Assembly (NCBI GenBank): GCA_001773575.1 | Contig: MEXB01000008.1 | Location: forward strand, 2,141 to 66,140 | Length of the DNA: 64,000 nt | Origin: Candidatus Adlerbacteria bacterium RIFOXYC1_FULL_48_26 | GTDB lineage: Bacteria > Patescibacteriota > Minisyncoccia > Phycocordibacterales > SBAW01 | Reading direction: 5' to 3' | Part shown: one piece after another, positions 4,930-41,646 of the stretch | How the letters are laid out: the number at the start of each line of letters is the position of its first letter | Position numbering within the stretch: the stretch's first letter is position 1 | Translations under genes and position numbers: made by a program | The notes under the pieces: generated by a model | The model's input: the letters and a program-made list of their open reading frames with translations, nothing else | Told to the model about the DNA's origin: nothing | The model's database searches: none

Positions 4930-5976
4930 ATGTCGGAGTTTTACAATAACGCCATCTTTTGGGTTGAGGTAGAGAAGATCAAACCAAACCCATACCAACC
5001 CCGCCGCGAGTTCGACCAAGCCAAGCTCGAAGACCTCGCAAAGTCTATCCGCCAGTACGGCGTTATCCAGCCTCTCACGGTTACTCGCCGCGAATTTGAG
5101 AAACAGGATGGTGGTATCGCAACAGAATATGAACTTATTGCAGGAGAGCGCCGTTTGCGCGCCTCACGTCTCGCAGGCATACAGCAAGTCCCAGTTATCA
5201 TCCGCGCAGACTACGACGATGACAAAACAAAACTCGAAGTAGCCATCATTGAGAACCTCCAGCGCGAGGACTTAAACCCAATGGACCGTGCAAACGCATT
5301 CGCACGTCTTGTAAACGAATTTGGTTTTAAACACAGCCAGGTTGCAGAGAAAGTAGGGAAGAGCCGTGAGTATGTGTCCAACACAATCCGCTTGCTCTCG
5401 CTCACTCCAGAAATGCAGCAAGCGCTTTCTGATGGAAAGATTGCAGAAGGCCACACACGCCCTCTCTTGATGCTTATAGACCGCCCACAGGAGCAAAGCG
5501 TGCTCTTCCGCGAGATTATGCTGAAGCGCCTCACCGTGCGCGATTCTGAATCTATTGCGCGCCGTATTGCATACGACAAAGTTCGCAAGAAAGAATATCT
5601 CTACGCGCCAGAAATATTGCAGATGGAACGAGAGCTTTCAGAAGCCCTTGGTACGCGCGTTGCTATTGAACCAAAAGAAAACGGTGGAAAGCTTTCTATC
5701 GACTTTATGAGCCAGGATGATCTCCAGACTCTCTTCGCCTCACTCGCACATAAAATTGCTCAGAACTCAGCTCCGGCATCCGCAGGACTTGCTGCTTTGG
5801 TTGCTGCAACTCCTCTAGTAGAAGTGCAGAAAACAGACATTCCGGGCGACTCTATTACTGCTTCGACTGTTGCTGAAGGTTCGGATGAATCTGTCTCTGA
5901 AGCACTTGATGACCGCTCTAAAGACGAAATTCAAAAAGACGAAAACACATTTGATCCAAATTCTTTTTCTTTATGA
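4930..5976 (+). CDS. parB: ParB/Spo0J-family partition / nucleoid-occlusion protein with an acidic C-terminal tail
   Basis: ParB box motifs: VEKIKPNPYQPRR, GVIQPLTV, GERRLRASRLAG, and the HTH region SQVAEKVGKSREYVSNTIRLL. Confidence 0.8.
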   Translation: MSEFYNNAIFWVEVEKIKPNPYQPRREFDQAKLEDLAKSIRQYGVIQPLTVTRREFEKQDGGIATEYELIAGERRLRASRLAGIQQVPVIIRADYDDDKTKLEVAIIENLQREDLNPMDRANAFARLVNEFGFKHSQVAEKVGKSREYVSNTIRLLSLTPEMQQALSDGKIAEGHTRPLLMLIDRPQEQSVLFREIMLKRLTVRDSESIARRIAYDKVRKKEYLYAPEILQMERELSEALGTRVAIEPKENGGKLSIDFMSQDDLQTLFASLAHKIAQNSAPASAGLAALVAATPLVEVQKTDIPGDSITASTVAEGSDESVSEALDDRSKDEIQKDENTFDPNSFSL

Positions 5977-31816: not shown

Positions 31817-32410
31817 ATGGCACGAATGCATCGCATCGATCTCGGAGGATATATCTATCACGTAATTAACCGAGCAAACGCTCGGATACGTATATTTCAT
31901 AACGATTCGGATTACAAAGAATTCGAATATCTACTTACAGAAATTAAAGAAACGTATAACGTACGTATTCTTGCGTATGCATTGATGCCAAATCACTGGC
32001 ATCTTTTACTGTATCCACGGAATGATGGCGATATGTCTAAAGCTCTTCATTGGTTAACTACGTCTCATGCGCGTCGGCATCATATTAAAAACAAAACAAT
32101 TGGAAACGGCCATCTTTACCAAGGACGTTACAAGTCGTTCATTATCAAGGGAGACAAGCATCTTTTAACAGTGCTCAAATATATCGAGAGAAATCCAGCA
32201 CGAGCAAGATTGTGTAATGTTGCAGAGGCGTGGCGATGGGGAAGCGCGTTTAGAAGGGTGTGTGGAACAACTGCAGAGCAGCAGTTGCTTGCAGGATTGC
32301 CCCTTGATCTACCGAAAAATTACCTTGAATGGATTAATACCCCCGAACCTTCCGAAGAATTGAAAGCCATTCGTCATTCTGTAAATATGGGCGTACCATA
32401 TGGTGGGTGA
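31817..32410 (+). CDS. REP-associated tyrosine transposase (RAYT; IS200/IS605-like Y1 HUH transposase)
   Basis: HUH motif in PNHWHLLL, catalytic Tyr region GHLYQGRYKS, N-terminal YHVINR. 197 aa, which fits Y1 transposases. Confidence 0.75.
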   Translation: MARMHRIDLGGYIYHVINRANARIRIFHNDSDYKEFEYLLTEIKETYNVRILAYALMPNHWHLLLYPRNDGDMSKALHWLTTSHARRHHIKNKTIGNGHLYQGRYKSFIIKGDKHLLTVLKYIERNPARARLCNVAEAWRWGSAFRRVCGTTAEQQLLAGLPLDLPKNYLEWINTPEPSEELKAIRHSVNMGVPYGG

Positions 32411-32514: not shown

Positions 32515-32988
32515 TTGTATATGAAAAATAGATTTTATTTTGATCGTTCTCTCACAAATGGAGCTATTATAATTTTAGCCATTGCTTTTACTGCAATGGC
32601 GGGACTCTCTCTTCTTGGAGGTTTTTCAGAACGACCATTCGTGTTTCTGGGAGTTGTTTATTCTATTCTCATTCTCATTTGGTTTGGATTTGCTTACGGG
32701 ATATATATAAATATTGAAGGAAACAGTCTTCAGGTCACACGTTTTTTTATAAAATGCAAGAAAGTTGATTTAGCGAAAGCAATTTCAATACAGCAAAAGC
32801 CAAAATTCGGAGGTTTAATTTATGAAGTCTCCCTGCAATTCCAAGACAATAATGGAAAAATTGATAGTACTGGTCTAATAAACAAACCCGCTCTAAAAGT
32901 AGAGGAATACGAACGACTCGTTAAACTTGTCATTGAAATAAATAAAGATGTAAGTATTGATCCTGATTTACTTAAGAAAGTTTTTTAA
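32515..32988 (+). CDS. Hypothetical membrane protein, possibly YdbS-like bacterial PH-domain (bPH_2) protein; markedly AT-rich
   Basis: Two N-terminal TM helices followed by a beta-rich ~90-aa domain. Lies between inverted REP copies R2 and R3. Confidence 0.35.
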   Translation: MYMKNRFYFDRSLTNGAIIILAIAFTAMAGLSLLGGFSERPFVFLGVVYSILILIWFGFAYGIYINIEGNSLQVTRFFIKCKKVDLAKAISIQQKPKFGGLIYEVSLQFQDNNGKIDSTGLINKPALKVEEYERLVKLVIEINKDVSIDPDLLKKVF

Positions 32989-33068: not shown

Positions 33069-34745
33069 ATGTCCCTCGGCAGTGACCTGCGGAAGCTTGT
33101 GCGTGGAGAAGTTGAAGACTCAAGCGAGGTGCTTGAGCGCTATTCACGCGACGCCAGCCTTTTTTATGTAAAACCGGGTGCGGTGTTTAAAGCAAAAGAC
33201 GCAACAGATCTTGGTATTGCCGTGCGCTATGCGGTGCATCAGAAAGAAATAAGCCCTGACAGCAGGGTTTCTATTACTGCACGCTCTGCCGGTACTGACA
33301 TGTCCGGTGGGCCGCTCAATACATCCATTATCGTGGATATGATGGCGCACTTTGATAAGTTGATTGAGCTTAGTGAATCACCAGACGGCGGATATGCAGT
33401 GGTTGAGCCGGGGATGTACTTCCGCGACTTCGATAAAGAAACTCAAAAGAAAAATCTAGAGCTTCCAAGCTATACAGCCTCACGGCAGATCAACACTGTG
33501 GGCGGTATGGTTGCCAACAACTCAGGCGGAGAGAAGAACCTTAAGTACGGCAAAACCGCACGCTATGTTGAGGAGCTTGATGTGGTGCTTGCCGATGGAC
33601 AGACGCACACACTTAAAAACCTTGAAGGCGATTCATTAAAGCTCAAGCTGCGCGAAGCGGGGCTTGAAGGAGATATATATCGCGGTGTTGCACGAATACT
33701 GTTGTCCCATAAAGATGTTATAGAGAAACATAAACCCACTGTAGAGAAGAATTCTTCAGGATACGCGCTATGGGATATAGGGGATGGTGTTAATTCGCTT
33801 AATCTCGCTCGGCTTATGGTTGGTTCACAGGGCACGCTTGGCATTGTGACAAAAATTAAATTCAAGCTTGTGCGGCCTAAACCATATGCCGCCATGACGG
33901 TCGCATTTCTAGACTCACTTTCAGAGCTTGGAAAGATCGTACCGGAGGTGCTTGAGAAAAAGCCGGACAGCTTTGAGTCTTACGACGACAATACATTTAA
34001 ACTTGCAGTTAAATACTTCCCAGAATTTGCGACGCAGATGAAGGCGGGGATTATTTCGCTTGGTATTTCTTTTTTGCCTGAGCTCTGGATGCTTATAACA
34101 GGCGGTGTTCCAAAGTTGGTACTTATGATTGAGTTCCATGCGGATACTCAAGAAGAGGCACTCAAGAAAGCAGAAGAGCTGGGAGAAGAAATCAAAAAGA
34201 ATAACCCTAAGGTAGGTACTCGTGTGGCTAAAGATGAGAAAGCTGCCCGAAAGTATTGGACTATCCGCCGAGAGAGTTTTAACCTGCTACGCCAGAAAGT
34301 GCGAGGGAAAAGAACCGCGCCTTTTATTGATGACTTTGTTGTGCCACCAAGTACATTGCCTGAATTTTTACCTAAGCTTGAAGCGATTCTAAAACCATAC
34401 GAAAAGAACATGATGTACACGGTTGCGGGCCACGTAGGTGACGGCAATTTCCATATCATTCCATTGGTTGACCCAACGCGTACTGAAACCGCACGCATCA
34501 TTGATGAGCTCTCACACAAAGTGTATGACCTGGTGCTGGAGTATAAGGGCTCTATAAGCGGGGAACACAACGATGGCTTTATCCGTACCCCATACGTCAA
34601 AAAGATGTTCGGTACAGACATGTACGCACTCTTCCTAGAAGTGAAGAAAATCTTCGACCCGCACAACATATTTAACCCAGGTAAAAAGGTAGGCTCTACC
34701 TTCAGCGATGCGCTCTCACACTTAGACCTTCCAAAAGGTAAGTAA
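33069..34745 (+). CDS. FAD-linked oxidase (PCMH-type FAD-binding domain; GlcD / D-lactate dehydrogenase-like)
   Basis: FAD-binding segment ITARSAGTDMSGGP, ..NTVGGMVANNSGG.., C-terminal GGSISGEHNDG. Confidence 0.75.
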   Translation: MSLGSDLRKLVRGEVEDSSEVLERYSRDASLFYVKPGAVFKAKDATDLGIAVRYAVHQKEISPDSRVSITARSAGTDMSGGPLNTSIIVDMMAHFDKLIELSESPDGGYAVVEPGMYFRDFDKETQKKNLELPSYTASRQINTVGGMVANNSGGEKNLKYGKTARYVEELDVVLADGQTHTLKNLEGDSLKLKLREAGLEGDIYRGVARILLSHKDVIEKHKPTVEKNSSGYALWDIGDGVNSLNLARLMVGSQGTLGIVTKIKFKLVRPKPYAAMTVAFLDSLSELGKIVPEVLEKKPDSFESYDDNTFKLAVKYFPEFATQMKAGIISLGISFLPELWMLITGGVPKLVLMIEFHADTQEEALKKAEELGEEIKKNNPKVGTRVAKDEKAARKYWTIRRESFNLLRQKVRGKRTAPFIDDFVVPPSTLPEFLPKLEAILKPYEKNMMYTVAGHVGDGNFHIIPLVDPTRTETARIIDELSHKVYDLVLEYKGSISGEHNDGFIRTPYVKKMFGTDMYALFLEVKKIFDPHNIFNPGKKVGSTFSDALSHLDLPKGK

Positions 34746-34752
34746 AAGAATT

Positions 34753-36234
34753 TTAGACAAACCCAGGGAAGAAGTCGATCTTGATATTGCGGCGATGGAC
34801 GCCAAGTTCGCGGAGTGTCTTTTCAAACGCGACAACCATGCCGTGTGGGCCTGAGAGATAGAAAAGTCGGTCTTTGTAGTCAGGAACTTCGCGTATAAGT
34901 TCCTCTGTCGTTATACGGTCATCGTAGTAGGTTTTTAAACCGATCTTCGCCCCCGCTTCTGCAAACACATCTTTGTACGCCAGCTCATTTTCTGACTTAG
35001 TTGAGTAGAGCAATATCGCATCACGATTTTGATTTGTATCGACCATATATTGGATCATTGAACGGAACGGTGTAACACCAATACCTCCTGCGATAAATGC
35101 CACTTTTTGTTGAGGGTTTTTTGGAAGAGTGAATTCTCCCGCAAGCTGGCCGACGGTAATCTCTTGCCCAGGCTTCATTGCAAGCAGCGCCTTTTTGAAG
35201 GTGCTCGAAGGCTCATATACTTTTATGCCAAGGCGTATATCTTCTTCTGTTGGGGAAGACCCAATCGTGAAATAGCGTCTATTTCCTCGCTGGTCTGGCT
35301 TCTCGTGCCCGAGGGTCCACTCCACATATTGTCCTGCTTTAAATGGAATTGGTTTATTGGTTGCGAATACAAATTCATACACACCCTCTGCTATTTGTTT
35401 GTATTCTTTAAGTGTAAGAACGCGGCGGATTTTTGGGCTCACGATGTATGCGTACACAGTGCCCACAAGAAGTGCTGTTTCAGGAGCGAAATAGAATGGT
35501 CCAATTTGTGTACCAGGGATAAATAAGAATGCGACGATTGCTGCATAGACCATGCGGTGCACACGCGTTACGGGAGAGGTGAGTGGCTCTGTCAGCATAA
35601 TGCTTACAAAGAAGAACAATGAAGAGTGGAGAAGCGTGTCCCACATAGAATCAAGCGGATTGTTCGGCAAGAATTTTATAGCAACCCCAGCAAGCACAAT
35701 AATAGAGAACACCCAGAATTGGTCGAAGCGTTGTACTTTGCGTATGACGAGTAACCCTCCAATAAGTACAAAAGGCAGAAGCGACAGTGTGCCGCCGACC
35801 CACCAGCTGGCATAGGTTCCAAATACAATACCTGTCACCGCTACTGCGAGTGCTGCAGGGTTAAAGATATGTTTTTTATCAATGGCAAGAATGTATTTTG
35901 ATGCCATAGCCAGAACGCCCGCAATAACCAACATTCCTGCGCCCATAAAATCAGTAAACGAGACGGGGTTGAGAATCAGCGTCAAGATAAATGACGTAAT
36001 ATAGACCGACTCTGTGTTTGGCGTAACTTTAAAAATCCATGCAAATGCCTCATTGCTTGCCCAACATGCGGCGACCATCACGAAAAACGAGAATAGAAGT
36101 GCCCAAGGGGTAAAGGAGAAGAAGCCAAAGAAGCTTAAGAAAAATGCAACGGCGATAAGTACTACGAGATGCCACAGCACGAGGCGATACATCGTTATGC
36201 GGTTTAAGAAACTGTCTACAAAAGGGATGTTCAT
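34753..36234 (-). CDS. Fusion protein: N-terminal polytopic membrane domain (~260 aa) + C-terminal FNR-like FAD/NAD(P)-binding oxidoreductase domain
   Basis: C-terminal domain shows RRYFTIGS (R-x-Y-S/T FAD motif) and GGIGVTPF (NAD(P) Gly-rich motif). The N-terminal half has ~7-8 TM helices without an obvious bis-His heme pattern. Confidence 0.6.
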   Translation of the reverse strand: MNIPFVDSFLNRITMYRLVLWHLVVLIAVAFFLSFFGFFSFTPWALLFSFFVMVAACWASNEAFAWIFKVTPNTESVYITSFILTLILNPVSFTDFMGAGMLVIAGVLAMASKYILAIDKKHIFNPAALAVAVTGIVFGTYASWWVGGTLSLLPFVLIGGLLVIRKVQRFDQFWVFSIIVLAGVAIKFLPNNPLDSMWDTLLHSSLFFFVSIMLTEPLTSPVTRVHRMVYAAIVAFLFIPGTQIGPFYFAPETALLVGTVYAYIVSPKIRRVLTLKEYKQIAEGVYEFVFATNKPIPFKAGQYVEWTLGHEKPDQRGNRRYFTIGSSPTEEDIRLGIKVYEPSSTFKKALLAMKPGQEITVGQLAGEFTLPKNPQQKVAFIAGGIGVTPFRSMIQYMVDTNQNRDAILLYSTKSENELAYKDVFAEAGAKIGLKTYYDDRITTEELIREVPDYKDRLFYLSGPHGMVVAFEKTLRELGVHRRNIKIDFFPGFV

Positions 36235-36956
36235 ATATGAGTTAATTCTCCAAAATTACTGGTCATTGTTGCGATGCCGTTCTTATCTATTGAGTATGCC
36301 TCAAAACCGGCTAGGGATTCAATAAATTCTACCCCTTTCTGTCCCATGGCAAATGCGGCGGTTGCGAACCTGTCGGCTTCCAACACGTCTGGGCCTATAA
36401 CGGTAATGCTCACGATCTCGTCCAGGGCTTTGTCGGGGGTGAGGGGATTGTAGATATGGTCGCCACGCTCGTAGGAGCCCGATGTAGCCACACCGCGCCC
36501 GCGCGGATATATAACTTTTATAATTTCTGCTTTGTTGAAGGGGTTACGAATACCTACACTCCATTCTTTGCCTTCAGCGTTTGTGCCACCTGTTTGAATA
36601 TCGCCACCGGCATCAATAAAAAAATTCTGGACACCTTTTTCTTGTAAGAGATCTGCCGCATTTTTAATTGCCCATCCCTTAACGATGCCTGATGGGTCAA
36701 TGGAACCGTCGGGTTTTCTGATATCAAAATAGCCGTTTGTTTCTTCTTTTGTTTTTTCGGCGAGCTCCAGAACTTCTTTCATGTCTTGAGATAAGGCCTC
36801 CGGCATCCGCGACACTTCGCTTTCAGGTTTGTAGGGGCTAAAGCGTTCGTCTACAGAAACGAAATATGAAAACACCGCCTCAAGGATTTCTGGTGAGACG
36901 GTGTCCACTATCTCGACCGTTATGGGAAGACCCATGATCAATCGAGTGTCTTTCAT
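36231..36956 (-). CDS. apbE: FAD:protein FMN transferase (ApbE family)
   Basis: GY.D.......GSIDPSGIVKGWA...A, FFIDAGGD, ATSGSYERG motifs of ApbE. Confidence 0.75.
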   Translation of the reverse strand: MKDTRLIMGLPITVEIVDTVSPEILEAVFSYFVSVDERFSPYKPESEVSRMPEALSQDMKEVLELAEKTKEETNGYFDIRKPDGSIDPSGIVKGWAIKNAADLLQEKGVQNFFIDAGGDIQTGGTNAEGKEWSVGIRNPFNKAEIIKVIYPRGRGVATSGSYERGDHIYNPLTPDKALDEIVSITVIGPDVLEADRFATAAFAMGQKGVEFIESLAGFEAYSIDKNGIATMTSNFGELTHI

Positions 36957-36960
36957 TAGA

Positions 36961-37470
36961 CTATATCTGCGCTTGCTGAAGCGCTGAAGAGAGTGAGGTA
37001 TTGAAACCTTCGGTGTTCTGAGTTGCGCCAGAAATTATATCAACGTGTGAGCCTTGCTTTGCAATAGCCTCTTTGATCATGACAGGGTACGAGCTTGCGC
37101 CGAGCTCGTCAGTAGTTCCAGGGCCTTCTGGCTTTTGTATTACATCTATCGCAGTTATTTTGCCGCTCGAGATAGTAACTTTTACCTGGACCTGTCCGTA
37201 TGGTGCAGCAGAACCAAGACTGCCTGTGTAGGTGCCGTTTTTGTATTGGCCAGGATCTACATCGCTAGGGGAAGAAGAATCTCCTATACCTGTATCCGTA
37301 CCTGTAGCGCTAGGGTTGTTAGTTGTTTGAGTCGAAGTTGCTTGACCTGTTTGGTCAGTAGGAACAGTCGGTTGTGTTGAGCGTGATGCAGCCCAAAGCG
37401 CGTAACCTCCCAAGAGCACAATAATAATGCCTCCAATAGCAAGTTTCTTCATATCGAGAAATTGTATCAT
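36961..37470 (-). CDS. Membrane-anchored FMN-binding domain protein (FMN_bind, NqrC/RnfG-like) with a flavinylation motif
   Basis: N-terminal TM anchor, Ser/Thr-rich linker, YKNGTYTG...FMN_bind fold, and D-I-I-S-G-A-T matching the D-x-x-(S/T)-G-A-T ApbE target motif. Confidence 0.65.
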   Translation of the reverse strand: MIQFLDMKKLAIGGIIIVLLGGYALWAASRSTQPTVPTDQTGQATSTQTTNNPSATGTDTGIGDSSSPSDVDPGQYKNGTYTGSLGSAAPYGQVQVKVTISSGKITAIDVIQKPEGPGTTDELGASSYPVMIKEAIAKQGSHVDIISGATQNTEGFNTSLSSALQQAQI

Positions 37471-38616
37471 ACTGACGGTATGGAACCGCTCGCCTCAAAA
37501 ATTCGACCCCAAGCTCTAGACGGTTTCTTTGGCCAAGAGCATTTGGTGGGTAAGGGCAAACCCTTACGCGAAGCTATTGAAGGTAAGCACCTCTTCTCCT
37601 TTCTTTTGTGGGGTCCGCCAGGCAGTGGCAAAACAACACTCGCGCGCATCTACGCGAACGCGCTTGATGCAGAGTTCTTTGAACTCTCGGCGGTTGATTC
37701 AGGAAAAGAAGACATTAAACGCGTGCTTGAATCTGGCAAGATAAATTTTTCTGGGAAGCCAAAGGTTTTGTTTATAGATGAAATTCATCGCTTCAATAAA
37801 GCACAGCAGGATTTTCTTCTGCCCTTTGTTGAGCGTGGCGACATTACCTTTATAGGTGCAACAACAGAAAACCCGTCGTTTGAAGTTATACCTGCGCTCC
37901 TTTCTCGCTCTCGTGTCTTTGTATTGAATGAGCATGGAGAGGATGATATGGAGAAGATCATCAAGAGCACAAAACTCAAAGTTCCTAAAGATGCAAAAGA
38001 TTGGCTGGTACAACTTGCGGCAGGGGATGCTAGACAGGCCATAGGAGTGCTTGAGAATACACAGAAACTATACGGAAAGATTACCGTCGAAACTCTAAAA
38101 GAAACGGTTCAGTCAAAACATCTACGCTACGACAAAAAAGGCGAGGAGCATTACAACACCATCTCGGCGTTTATAAAATCTATGCGCGCAAGCCAGGGTG
38201 ACGCCGCGCTCTACTACTTGGCGCGTATGGTAGATGCAGGAGAAGATCCACTTTTTATTGCGCGACGCATGGTTATCTTTGCCAGCGAAGATATTGGGCT
38301 GGCACAACCAACAGCGCTTGTGGTAGCAAACGAAGTATTTCGTGCCTGCGAAACTATTGGGTACCCAGAATGTCAGATTAACTTGGCGCACGGTGTCGCA
38401 TATTTAGCAGAATCTAAAAAGAGCCGTAAGAGCTACGATGCTTATTTCGAAGCGCTTGCTGATGTAAAGAAACACGGCAACCTACCTGTTCCGCTCAAAA
38501 TACGAAACGCTCCAACCAAGCTGATGAAAGACTTGGACTACCACAAGGGGTACAAACTCTACGATAAAGAGAGCTACCTACCCGAAAAACTAAAAGGGAA
38601 GAAGTATTTAAAATAA
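37462..38616 (+). CDS. rarA: Replication-associated recombination protein A (MgsA/RarA AAA+ ATPase)
   Basis: [23 protein letters not shown], Walker [12 protein letters not shown], Walker [14 protein letters not shown], sensor TTENP. Confidence 0.85.
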
Positions 38617-39390: not shown

Positions 39391-39950
39391 AACCCACAAA
39401 AACAAAATCTAGAATCTACCTAGCCATAGCCTCAGCCGTTGTCCTTCTCTGGGCAGGGTCTCTTGTGTTTGGATTGATATTCGCCTTCTCTTATAAGTCG
39501 GATTCTCTGAACTTCAAGTCAGAAGAGATTGGGTTAGAATTTTCATATCCAAAAATCTACACGCTCACTGAGCGCCACGACTCCTATGCGGGTGCAGAAA
39601 TCCATGTATTAACACTGATTAATGCGTCGACTACTGTCCCTGACATGAGCGAAGGGCCGACAGCAATTTCTATTATTGAAATTCCAGTCGTAGATGACAT
39701 TGATGTAGAACAGTGGCTCCGCAACGCAACGATCTCTAACTTCAATCTCTCTCCTGACAAAACCTTCACTCCAAAAATTATAGATAGGGAAGACGGTTTA
39801 GCGTATCGTTACAGCGGATTATATGAGTCAGACGCTGTCGCTGTAGAACATGATGGAAAGATATTCTTGTTTGCTGTGTCGTGGATGGATCAAAACGACC
39901 CAATGCGTCATGATTTCCAGGAGCTTCTGGACAGTGTAGAATTTAAATAA
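39387..39950 (+). CDS. Hypothetical N-terminally anchored extracytoplasmic protein
   Basis: Single TM then a soluble domain. Translationally coupled to msrA and to the VKOR-like gene. Confidence 0.4.
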   Translation: MKPTKTKSRIYLAIASAVVLLWAGSLVFGLIFAFSYKSDSLNFKSEEIGLEFSYPKIYTLTERHDSYAGAEIHVLTLINASTTVPDMSEGPTAISIIEIPVVDDIDVEQWLRNATISNFNLSPDKTFTPKIIDREDGLAYRYSGLYESDAVAVEHDGKIFLFAVSWMDQNDPMRHDFQELLDSVEFK

Positions 39951-40363
39951 TGAAACTCACACCGTATTGGCTTATAGCCGCATCGTTTATTGGTATTGGT
40001 GACACGCTCTACCTTGCGTACTACCACTTCCTTGGAATTGTCCCAACCTGCGCAATTGGTGGTTGTGAAATTGTGCTTAACAGTCAGTACGCTTCAGTGC
40101 TAGGAATACCGCTTTCATACCTGGGCCTTGTCTACTATGTGTATTTCCTCGCTCTTGCGATATTGCTGGCTATAGACCCAGAGTCAAAAGGCCTTCGTTT
40201 TGGAATGCTTGCCTATGCTGCGATAGGTGTACTTTTCTCAATCGGTTTTGAACTCCTCCAGTTCTTTGTGATCGGCGCACTCTGCCTGTACTGCGGTATC
40301 TCAGCTGCCACAGCACTTCTGTTGTTTGGCCTTGCCGTGTGGCACTGGAAGATAACAAAATAG
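39950..40363 (+). CDS. Vitamin K epoxide reductase (VKOR)-like membrane thiol oxidoreductase
   Basis: Four TM helices, a loop Cys pair (CAIGGC) and C-x-x-C (CLYC) in the last helix, the VKOR arrangement. Confidence 0.55.
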   Translation: MKLTPYWLIAASFIGIGDTLYLAYYHFLGIVPTCAIGGCEIVLNSQYASVLGIPLSYLGLVYYVYFLALAILLAIDPESKGLRFGMLAYAAIGVLFSIGFELLQFFVIGALCLYCGISAATALLLFGLAVWHWKITK

Positions 40364-41155
40364 TTAGTAGCCTCGGCGATATTTACGCCACAGTCTCCAT
40401 AGAGTGTAGAGAAACCCTATTGCAAGAATAGGGTAGAAGACCCCAACGTTTGTGACTATATAGAGAAGTATTGTTACTACATAGAGCGCAACGGTTGCGA
40501 GTATTCTCCACGCTGTTTGCATAAGAGAACCTTTCTCCTCCTCCGTAGCGCCTATGCTTGCAGCCGCTTTGGATGATGTTGCTACCTGTGACTTTGACCA
40601 GTTGAGTGCGGTGTTTAGTTTTTCAGCAACAAATGTACGGCCAGAATCAATTACCTCTAATACAGGAGATGAGTATTCAGCAATTGCTGGAGAGACACTC
40701 TGAATTGATTCTTGTATGGGGGTTGATGGTTGCACATCGCCTATTTGAGCGTTTGAAACTCCAAAAGGGTTTGCCGATGAAGCCGCTGTTGCTGATGGTG
40801 CCGCTGCGATGATAAATGCTTCTTTGTCTTCTTCTATTGATTTGCCATTTGCATCTTGTAAATCAGCAACAATAGTGTGCGAACCCGCTGTCGGTTTCCA
40901 CGAGACAGATGCAGTGTCAGCTCCTCCGGCTTTCAGTGATACTGGTACGCTACCAATTTCAGATGCACCATCTTTTATAACAAGTGTTCCGTTAAAGGTC
41001 GTGGTTGCAGGGTTAGAAACTGATGCGTAAATCGTTACGGTCTGACCTTCCACTGGCGCGGAGGTTGAAAGAAAAATACTCTGCTTCGCAAACCCTACAG
41101 CCGATACAGACAAGGGGAGAGCAAAGAGTATTGCAGCAAATAACATTCGCTTCAT
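40364..41155 (-). CDS. Hypothetical secreted protein with C-terminal TM anchor (start trimmed to the MKRML signal peptide)
   Basis: Signal peptide MKRMLFAAILFALPLSVSA, Ser/Thr/Ala-rich body, C-terminal TM + basic tail. Confidence 0.4.
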   Translation of the reverse strand: MKRMLFAAILFALPLSVSAVGFAKQSIFLSTSAPVEGQTVTIYASVSNPATTTFNGTLVIKDGASEIGSVPVSLKAGGADTASVSWKPTAGSHTIVADLQDANGKSIEEDKEAFIIAAAPSATAASSANPFGVSNAQIGDVQPSTPIQESIQSVSPAIAEYSSPVLEVIDSGRTFVAEKLNTALNWSKSQVATSSKAAASIGATEEEKGSLMQTAWRILATVALYVVTILLYIVTNVGVFYPILAIGFLYTLWRLWRKYRRGY

Positions 41156-41199
41156 TGGTAAAAGTATAGCAAGGAAAAACCATGTGTTAAAATTTATGC

Positions 41200-41646
41200 A
41201 TGTCTGTTCATACGCATCTCCACCGACATTTTTTGCCGTCGCATCATAACGCCTATCGTCCACATATTTTGCGCAAAGGATGGCTACTCTTTTTTGTCGC
41301 GGTGATTATGGCAAGCGAGGGCCTGTTTGTATCAGGGCTGTATGTCCAGCAAGCAGCTCCTTCTGTGGCTGTAATTCAAGATTCACAGACTGCCTCAGTT
41401 GGTAGCGCGGCTTCGTCATTCTTAAACAGTTTTGGTAAAGACCTCGCTCGTATTGCCGTAGAGTCTGAGCCCTATATCCCATGGATTCTTGGAATGCTTG
41501 GGGCTATGCTAGTTATCGCGGTCATGTTTGCGTTCTTCGTCCATATACAGATACAGCAGTCCGAGATGTTGTTTAGCGGGGCGCTGGTTGCCATGTTTGC
41601 CTTTTCTTTGATGATTACTAACATTCATATTTTGGGTATACTGTAA
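41200..41646 (+). CDS. Hypothetical membrane protein
   Basis: Three predicted TM helices. No recognisable domain. Confidence 0.35.
   Translation: MSVHTHLHRHFLPSHHNAYRPHILRKGWLLFFVAVIMASEGLFVSGLYVQQAAPSVAVIQDSQTASVGSAASSFLNSFGKDLARIAVESEPYIPWILGMLGAMLVIAVMFAFFVHIQIQQSEMLFSGALVAMFAFSLMITNIHILGIL

Follow-up and report, generated by a model that had tools for sequence, protein, structure and literature searches.

The system termed NQR/RNF-like was defined from flavinylation-associated gene clusters by a protein that joins an NqrB/RnfD-like membrane domain (PF03116) at its N-terminus to an NqrF-like NAD-binding domain (PF00175) at its C-terminus (Méheust et al. 2021 eLife, PMC8238504). Most reports of it concern Actinobacteria and the candidate phyla radiation (CPR) (PMC8238504, PMC10979944). 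The complex of Ktedonobacter racemifer was modelled with AlphaFold-multimer (Huang et al. 2024, PMC10979944). In this model, the FMN_bind domain is placed outside the membrane, and the flavinylation site of the NqrC-like protein lies close to what appears to be a site for non-covalent flavin in the RnfD-like subunit, in which the flavinylation threonine of RnfD/NqrB is not conserved. The locus considered below is a cluster of three genes in a 64-kb window (the whole stretch of DNA that was analysed, 64,000 nucleotides) of Candidatus Adlerbacteria bacterium RIFOXYC1_FULL_48_26. The cluster encodes an FMN_bind protein, an ApbE and a fusion of a membrane domain to an FNR domain, and it is probably a member of the NQR/RNF-like system, in which a chain of flavins would lead electrons to a flavoprotein outside the membrane.

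The three genes are co-directional open reading frames (ORFs) at 34753–37470 on the minus strand, as are all features of the cluster given below; a preliminary description of the locus had placed them at the same coordinates. They encode a membrane-anchored NqrC/RnfG-like FMN_bind flavoprotein, which is the predicted ApbE substrate (36961..37470, 169 amino acids (aa), PF04205), a short leaderless ApbE of the FAD:protein FMN transferase type (FAD, flavin adenine dinucleotide; FMN, flavin mononucleotide; 36231..36956, 241 aa, PF02424) and the RnfD/NqrB-like membrane + FNR fusion (34753..36234, 493 aa). Four nucleotides separate the FMN_bind stop from the ApbE start, and an ATGA overlap joins the ApbE stop to the start of the fusion, which bears out the overlapping or close ends described earlier. 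The earlier domain assignments also hold. Pfam gave 37.6 bits for FMN_bind on the 169-aa ORF (cut-off 22), 145.7 bits for ApbE (cut-off 25.6) and 35.9 bits for PF00175 (NAD_binding_1) at residues 380–431 of the fusion (cut-off 22). A hypothetical protein of the named Adlerbacteria genome (CPR/Patescibacteria) matches the fusion at 100% identity. The whole window contains a single ApbE, a single FMN_bind gene and a single flavinylation motif.

In its parts, host group, lost RnfD threonine and proposed one-way electron flow, which leads from NAD(P)H to a flavin outside the cytosol, the locus is the same as the published system, and structurally no difference was seen. Méheust et al. recognise the system operationally by a PF03116-type domain, PF00175 and adjacent ApbE and FMN_bind genes; all of these are present, the first being identified by profile, hhalign and Foldseek and by the hits of homologues. 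The loss of the flavinylated threonine of NqrB/RnfD, to which Huang et al. refer, is found in the membrane domain of the window as well. The preliminary description had proposed a path from NAD(P)H through the membrane to an outside flavoprotein, which matches the published proposal (PMC8238504, PMC10979944). Its statement that this architecture lies outside the named systems was wrong, the arrangement being that of the NQR/RNF-like system (PMC8238504, PMC10979944).

The membrane half of the fusion (aa 1–268, 35431..36234) is an RnfD/NqrB-like domain of 10 predicted helices in which the flavinylated loop is absent. It was described previously as a polytopic domain of about 260 aa; the polytopic character stands, and the length is corrected to about 268 aa. 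Among the matches listed, the full-length profile and the full-length AlphaFold2 model gave only those to FNR domains; the membrane domain was therefore cut out and modelled separately. A phmmer search of the Protein Data Bank (PDB) with the single membrane-domain sequence gave no match, and a family profile was required. The profile built from 18 N-terminal domains matched one PDB sequence only, RnfD of Azotobacter vinelandii (8ahx_D, E 4.3e-4), over the T(D/E)P-x-T-S-P region, and hhalign aligned the membrane-domain family to E. coli RsxD with E 1.6e-5. The AlphaFold2 model of residues 1–268 had a mean confidence (predicted local distance difference test, pLDDT) of 84.6. In Foldseek against the PDB, its best 15 matches were all RnfD/NqrB, with probability 1.00 and TM-scores up to 0.73, and the next ones were urea transporters at E of about 0.5. 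Most homologues have a precomputed PF03116 hit. The profile and structure comparisons suggested for this half in the preliminary description lead to the RnfD/NqrB fold; the ferric-reductase profile PF01794 (Ferric_reduct) had no hit on the fusion.

The FNPA and TEP motifs of the window protein are 91 residues apart, versus 167 in RsxD (FNPA at 121, TDP at 288). In RsxD this stretch holds the flavinylated DGISQAT loop (T187), which is deleted in the window protein; a short outside loop, GTYASWWVGGTLSL (aa 139–152, 35779..35820), stands in place of the long flavinylated-Thr loop of RnfD/NqrB. The covalent FMN site of these proteins (Thr187 in RsxD, Thr236 in NqrB) is absent, and no [ST]G[AS][ST] motif occurs in residues 1–268. 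With the helices taken from the full-length AlphaFold2 model, all loops containing Lys or Arg lie on the FNR side (R12/R17, K69, K120-K121, R165-K166-R169, R224/R227, K268/R270/R271), and the five loops of the opposite side have no Lys or Arg. Because of this distribution and the positive-inside rule, the fusion is assigned a predicted N-in/C-in topology with the FNR domain in the cytoplasm.

In Na+-NQR, riboflavin is bound within NqrB on the cytoplasmic side and receives hydrogen bonds from T162, N200, N203 and D346 (Kishikawa et al. 2022, PMC9325719), and the FMN of NqrB opposes that of NqrC on the periplasmic side (PMC9325719). Through RsxD alignments, T162/N200/N203/D346 of NqrB map to T80/H122/N125/E216 of the window protein, and these four residues are invariant in 40/40 family members. 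N125 belongs to the FNPA motif (aa 124–127, 35854..35865) and, with the preceding H122, corresponds to the riboflavin ligands N203 and N200. E216 of the TEP motif (aa 215–217, 35584..35592) takes the place of the Asp of the RnfD/NqrB TDP motif, that is, of the ligand D346. From this sequence correspondence we infer a conserved non-covalent flavin site in the membrane domain, which makes it plausible that electrons cross the membrane from flavin to flavin. Only two His residues, H122 and H203, are conserved in the membrane half, hence the bis-His haem pattern is lacking, as had been noted before. A path from FAD through a membrane flavin to the covalent FMN needs no haem and fits this finding. 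The manner of crossing the membrane, called unclear in the preliminary description, is largely answered by the RnfD/NqrB fold and the retained riboflavin-ligand positions of NqrB.

In its C-terminal half, the fusion carries an ordinary FAD/NAD(P) domain of the FNR family (aa 271–493, 34756..35424, PF00175), NqrF-like and cytoplasmic by the predicted topology. The RRYFTIGS (aa 319–326, 35257..35280) and GGIGVTPF (aa 383–390, 35065..35088) motifs reported earlier are both present. Their FAD- and NAD(P)-binding residues R319-R320, G383-G386, T388 and P389 are invariant, and Y321, F322 and T323 are conserved in at least 90% of the sequences. The full-length profile matched flavohaemoglobin, NqrF and other reductases of the FNR family in the PDB. 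Foldseek with the full-length AlphaFold2 model (pLDDT 86.8) likewise returned flavohaemoglobin, NqrF and the dehydrogenase domain of SpNOX.

The FMN_bind partner has MKK followed by a hydrophobic anchor or signal of 17 residues (LAIGGIIIVLLGGYALW, 37393..37443; Kyte-Doolittle value, KD17, of 2.19). The linker at residues 31–82 contains 38% Ser+Thr, five Pro and one Lys/Arg, in agreement with the Ser/Thr-rich linker of the preliminary description. The DIISGAT motif, also reported there, occupies residues 144–150 (37021..37041), and Thr150 is the predicted FMN attachment site. Among the window ORFs of at least 100 aa it is the sole flavinylation motif of the [ST]G[AS][ST] type. A PF04205 domain with a C-terminal D-x-x-[ST]-G-A-[ST] motif, which marks an ApbE substrate of the NqrC/RnfG type, is present. 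The core site [ST]G[AS][ST] is conserved in 75/75 partner proteins by alignment; a regular expression demanding a leading D/N missed it in 28 of them. The flank N-terminal to the anchor is richer in Lys+Arg than the C-terminal flank in 53 of the 75 homologues and poorer in four. In some actinobacterial partners, a lipobox-like ...AGC closes the hydrophobic stretch. Topology and export of the partners were judged from hydropathy and charge bias and not with a trained predictor such as SignalP. By these measures the FMN_bind domain is predicted to be outside the membrane with its anchor N-in, and the flavinylation motif does not fall in the cytoplasm, as the preliminary description had expected for FMN_bind outside and FNR inside.

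The gene of this protein probably starts at Met7 (37452), the sole basis for preferring this codon being that homologues align from MKK. No clear Shine-Dalgarno sequence was found before either candidate FMN_bind start or before ApbE. A scan of 34400..37900 for promoters and terminators returned sites no more numerous than in shuffled sequence and thus says nothing on transcription units.

By alignment to E. coli ApbE, the start of the ApbE ORF (MKDTRLIMGLPITVEIVD) falls at the first strand in the mature fold, and the ORF has no stretch matching residues 76–146 of the E. coli protein. An N-terminal lipoprotein signal peptide or lipobox is absent. No 15-residue segment with a mean hydropathy above 1.5 was found at the N-terminus in any of the 72 cluster-linked ApbEs, whichever phylum was examined. 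The residues S159/H167/D195, equivalent to the catalytic S241/H257/D285 of V. cholerae ApbE (PMC12052999), are invariant in 72/72, likewise T199, K93, G94, G118 and D119. The ApbE profile is thus accompanied by the Ser-His-Asp residues, and the activity predicted for the enzyme is the Mg2+-dependent transfer of FMN from FAD to the Thr/Ser of the motif. The preliminary description missed the absence of an export signal, which is the one real puzzle of the locus, and the leaderless ApbE of these clusters also seems to pass unremarked in the parts of Méheust et al. and Huang et al. used here. A second subgroup of loci, Saccharibacteria-like and actinobacterial (L040, L041, L046–L050, L056, L060, L061, L064, L069–L083), has longer ApbEs of 282–324 aa that start with F-x-A-I-G-T and are leaderless too. 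The partners of this subgroup have a V-[SAG]-G-S-S site in place of D-I-x-S-G-A-T, and their N-terminus is sometimes lipobox-like.

A scan of species-representative genomes gave at least 493 relatives, from which 80 loci were kept; synteny was counted in the 74 loci whose upstream sequence was long enough. In 64 of these, covering at least seven phylum-level groups, the genes follow directly on one another on one strand in the order FMN_bind, ApbE, fusion, and the order is kept even where the flanking genes are unrelated. The conservation of the trio, proposed as a check in the preliminary description, was in this way confirmed. Carriers include many classes of Patescibacteria, Rhizobiales (Mesorhizobium, Kaistia, Phyllobacterium), Ktedonobacteria and other Chloroflexota, Spirochaetota, Actinomycetota (Microbacteriaceae, Arthrobacter), Acidobacteriota and others. 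Taken together, the profile matches and the synteny across phyla are far beyond chance. The fusions of Mesorhizobium, Kaistia and Phyllobacterium (L007–L011, L015, L019, L022) are 47–49% identical to the Adlerbacteria protein, compared with 39–41% for several other Patescibacteria fusions (L051–L061). Since the Rhizobiales fusions are thus the closer ones, the sequences suggest that the cluster has moved horizontally between phyla. Its neighbour in Rhizobiales is often a two-component system. Clade-local neighbours across the loci are MacB-type ABC transporters (18 loci), two-component systems (14–16 loci) and VIT1 (4 loci). In L036 of Acidobacteriota (Acidiferrales), two tandem FMN_bind genes at 4946..5946, both with D-I-[IV]-SGAT, lie upstream of the fusion and an adjacent ApbE is absent; in L005, L012, L051, L052 and L073, the fusion has neither partner nearby.

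As a mechanism it is proposed that NAD(P)H is oxidised on the FAD of the fusion's cytoplasmic FNR-like domain. Electrons would pass to a non-covalent flavin at the NqrB riboflavin position, in the cytoplasmic half of the membrane domain, and further to the covalent FMN at Thr150 of the membrane-anchored NqrC/RnfG-like protein. This protein would dock on the outer face, where RnfD/NqrB would hold their own covalent FMN. The outside FMN would then reduce an acceptor for which the cluster has no gene. Attachment of FMN would be carried out by ApbE.

Several points weigh against assigning the locus to the NQR/RNF-like system with this mechanism. PF03116 (NQR2_RnfD_RnfE) reaches 21.2 bits on the window fusion, under the Pfam cut-off of 27.7, and a screen at Pfam thresholds might miss the protein. 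The riboflavin site was mapped transitively, from the family to RsxD and from RsxD to NqrB, by sequence alone, and the equivalence of T80 rests on the motif spacing S-x3-T-x9-P. Across the 80 loci, no fourth gene family that could supply an acceptor is conserved with the trio. The literature search found just the two papers cited above on the system and no experimental study of any member. Finally, an ApbE that is leaderless in 72/72 cases would conflict with a substrate predicted to face outside unless flavinylation precedes export.

ApbE is normally a secreted lipoprotein with targets that are secreted too, as summarised in a 2025 review (PMC12052999). According to the same source, a cytosolic version of ApbE did not complement in Salmonella, known cytosolic ApbEs act on cytosolic targets such as the Klebsiella fumarate reductase, and a 7-residue tag suffices for flavinylation (PMC12052999). 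A signal peptide hidden by a mis-called start was rejected, the longest ORF beginning at the aligned Met in most loci; where longer ApbE ORFs are present, the extension is non-hydrophobic and overlaps the FMN_bind gene. Tat export was rejected as a general answer because RR occurs in just four of 75 partner n-regions. The options left are cytoplasmic flavinylation before or during Sec/YidC export, an FMN_bind domain kept inside, and unconventional export of ApbE. It is tentatively suggested, as a possibility short of an even chance, that a dedicated cytoplasmic ApbE flavinylates the unfolded SGAT motif at the C-terminus of the NqrC-like partner, either before export or in its course. This order would be compatible with ApbEs that are leaderless and catalytically intact, with export-type anchors on the partners, with the rarity of RR and with the acceptance of a 7-residue tag.

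The same features of ApbE could also be accommodated by an arrangement entirely within the cytoplasm, in which the leaderless enzyme would flavinylate an FMN_bind domain kept inside, and electrons would pass from NAD(P)H to FAD, to the covalent FMN, to the riboflavin site and to a quinone or other membrane acceptor instead of the outside, so that the complex would be a minimal NQR. This would agree with the kept catalytic triad and missing export signal of all 72 ApbEs, with the cytosolic targets of known leaderless ApbEs (PMC12052999) and with the feeding of ubiquinone from the cytoplasmic-side riboflavin site of NqrB (PMC9325719). It is nevertheless improbable, because the partners have MKK before a hydrophobic N-terminus with the Lys+Arg bias given above, some actinobacterial ones end this stretch in the lipobox-like ...AGC, and the linker is rich in Ser, Thr and Pro. 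Homologous NqrC/RnfG domains are periplasmic (PMC9325719), and the published modelling has the domain outside (PMC10979944). For the cytoplasmic arrangement, the VKOR homologue 2.5 kb away from the cluster is a hint that the cell may have a quinone; against it, quinone biosynthesis is generally missing from CPR genomes.

Another possibility leaves the architecture and the flow of the flavin chain unchanged and concerns its job, which would be the reduction of extracellular ferric iron for uptake or the use of outside acceptors that regenerate NAD(P)+ in a fermentative CPR cell. A VIT1 iron transporter occurs in six clusters described by Méheust et al., and flavinylated proteins of the FMN_bind type, for instance PplA, reduce iron outside the cell in Listeria, both according to that paper (PMC8238504); a VIT1-like gene is near four of the present loci. 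This is a small minority, though, and none lies in the window. No iron-related gene was found within about 6 kb on either side of the cluster, and there is no conserved acceptor gene, which leaves such a role rather unlikely. Coupling of NAD(P)H oxidation through the RnfD/NqrB-like domain to Na+ or H+ transport, as in Rnf/Nqr, is highly improbable. The domain shares its fold with subunits of Na+-pumping complexes, but the RnfA/E and NqrD/E membrane subunits are absent from the cluster, the one-way path of two subunits lacks an obvious coupling site, and Kishikawa et al. argue against a membrane-spanning channel through NqrB (PMC9325719).

Compared with Na+-NQR (NqrA-F) and Rnf (RnfABCDGE), the window system retains the NqrB/RnfD fold, the FNPA and T(D/E)P motifs and the riboflavin-ligand positions, a partner homologous to NqrC/RnfG with the same flavinylation motif, and an FNR domain resembling the FAD/NADH domain of NqrF. 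Unlike them, it consists of two polypeptides without NqrA/D/E or RnfA/B/C/E and without Fe-S centres, its covalent FMN loop is deleted, and FNR is fused directly to the RnfD-like domain. Electrons are predicted to move outward only, not out and back as in those complexes, and ion pumping is not expected. No six-subunit Rnf or Na+-NQR operon was found among the neighbour ORFs or in the 80 loci, the rest of the 64-kb window not having been scanned with Pfam.

In Gram-positive flavin-based extracellular electron transfer (Ndh2, EetA/B, PplA, FmnB), reportedly described by Light et al. in 2018, an ApbE-type enzyme likewise flavinylates a surface FMN_bind protein and electrons are thought to reach outside acceptors. 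However, the membrane step there uses Ndh2, a quinone (demethylmenaquinone, DMK) and EetA/B rather than an RnfD-FNR fusion, and FmnB is secreted as a lipoprotein and receives FAD that has been exported. The PplA model gave E 0.017 and 14.3 bits against the NCBIfam cut-off of 325. No genes of the Ndh2, EetA, EetB or PplA type were found among the neighbour ORFs run against Pfam, and no such family recurs across the loci. The cytoplasmic ApbE of Klebsiella pneumoniae (cited in PMC12052999) resembles the window enzyme in being leaderless with an intact active site, but its substrate is the soluble cytoplasmic fumarate reductase, whereas that of the window has an export-type N-terminus. The NOX/FRE ferric reductases, for example SpNOX, also fuse a membrane domain to an NAD(P)H-oxidising FNR-like dehydrogenase, and the dehydrogenase domains match structurally. 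Their membrane domain is a 6-helix bis-haem one with four His, in contrast to the 10-helix RnfD fold with two conserved His and no PF01794 in the window protein.

The ORFs neighbouring the trio encode BipA, GH18, an IS200-like transposase, a FAD-linked oxidase, RarA, MsrA and VKOR. The RarA/MgsA AAA+ ATPase (37462..38616, plus strand) is divergent from the FMN_bind gene. Read from TTG at 37462, its longest ORF shares 9 nucleotides with the longest FMN_bind ORF; the likely starts, ATG at 37480 (MEPLASK) for RarA and Met7 at 37452 for FMN_bind, leave about 27 nucleotides between the divergent genes, and the scan of 34400..37900 found no promoter-like site in this gap. In the closest Adlerbacteria relatives, L001 and L003, the place immediately upstream of FMN_bind is taken by a gene of 135–142 aa (3207..3635 in L001, 3342..3749 in L003), which has a weak DUF5666 hit, and by a MacB-type ABC transporter; the window has neither, and RarA is there instead. 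The FAD-linked oxidase (33069..34745, plus strand; FAD_binding_4 and FAD-oxidase_C, D-lactate/glycolate-oxidase-like) is convergent with the gene of the fusion. It lies near the trio in L001 and L003, as do the GH18/PG_binding gene and BipA, but not in other phyla; it is a matter of local synteny rather than a conserved partner. The IS200-like Y1 transposase (31817..32410, plus strand, PF01797 70.4 bits) is followed by an unannotated membrane ORF of 157 aa (32515..32988), and this pair is absent at the corresponding place in L001 and L003. The VKOR homologue (39950..40363, plus strand, 137 aa, PF07884 82.6 bits) has a CxxxxC motif (CAIGGC), which suggests that a membrane quinone or other oxidant is used for disulfide formation. 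The next gene (40364..41263, minus strand) encodes what is probably a cell-surface protein of 299 aa: its N-terminus has a signal-like segment, its C-terminal tail is hydrophobic and Arg-rich, and it contains an Ig-like (Big_3_5/CARDB) domain.

The biological reading of the locus has already been published, and as a discovery the locus adds little. What it offers beyond the portions of the published work used here is the question of the leaderless ApbE and the conserved riboflavin-site residues. The residues T80/H122/N125/E216 are specific targets for mutagenesis of the proposed membrane flavin wire, and a leaderless ApbE paired with an exported-looking substrate poses a concrete and cheaply testable question on the site of flavinylation. 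If flavinylation does precede export, a Sec-type substrate would cross the membrane with covalent FMN and the export of FAD would be unneeded. This would be a new order of events in the maturation of extracytosolic flavoproteins, and one that suits genome-reduced CPR bacteria. CPR/Patescibacteria have very few redox enzymes, and a two-protein route from NAD(P)H to the surface, which could reduce iron, flavins or host-derived acceptors, could be among their few means of regenerating NAD(P)+.

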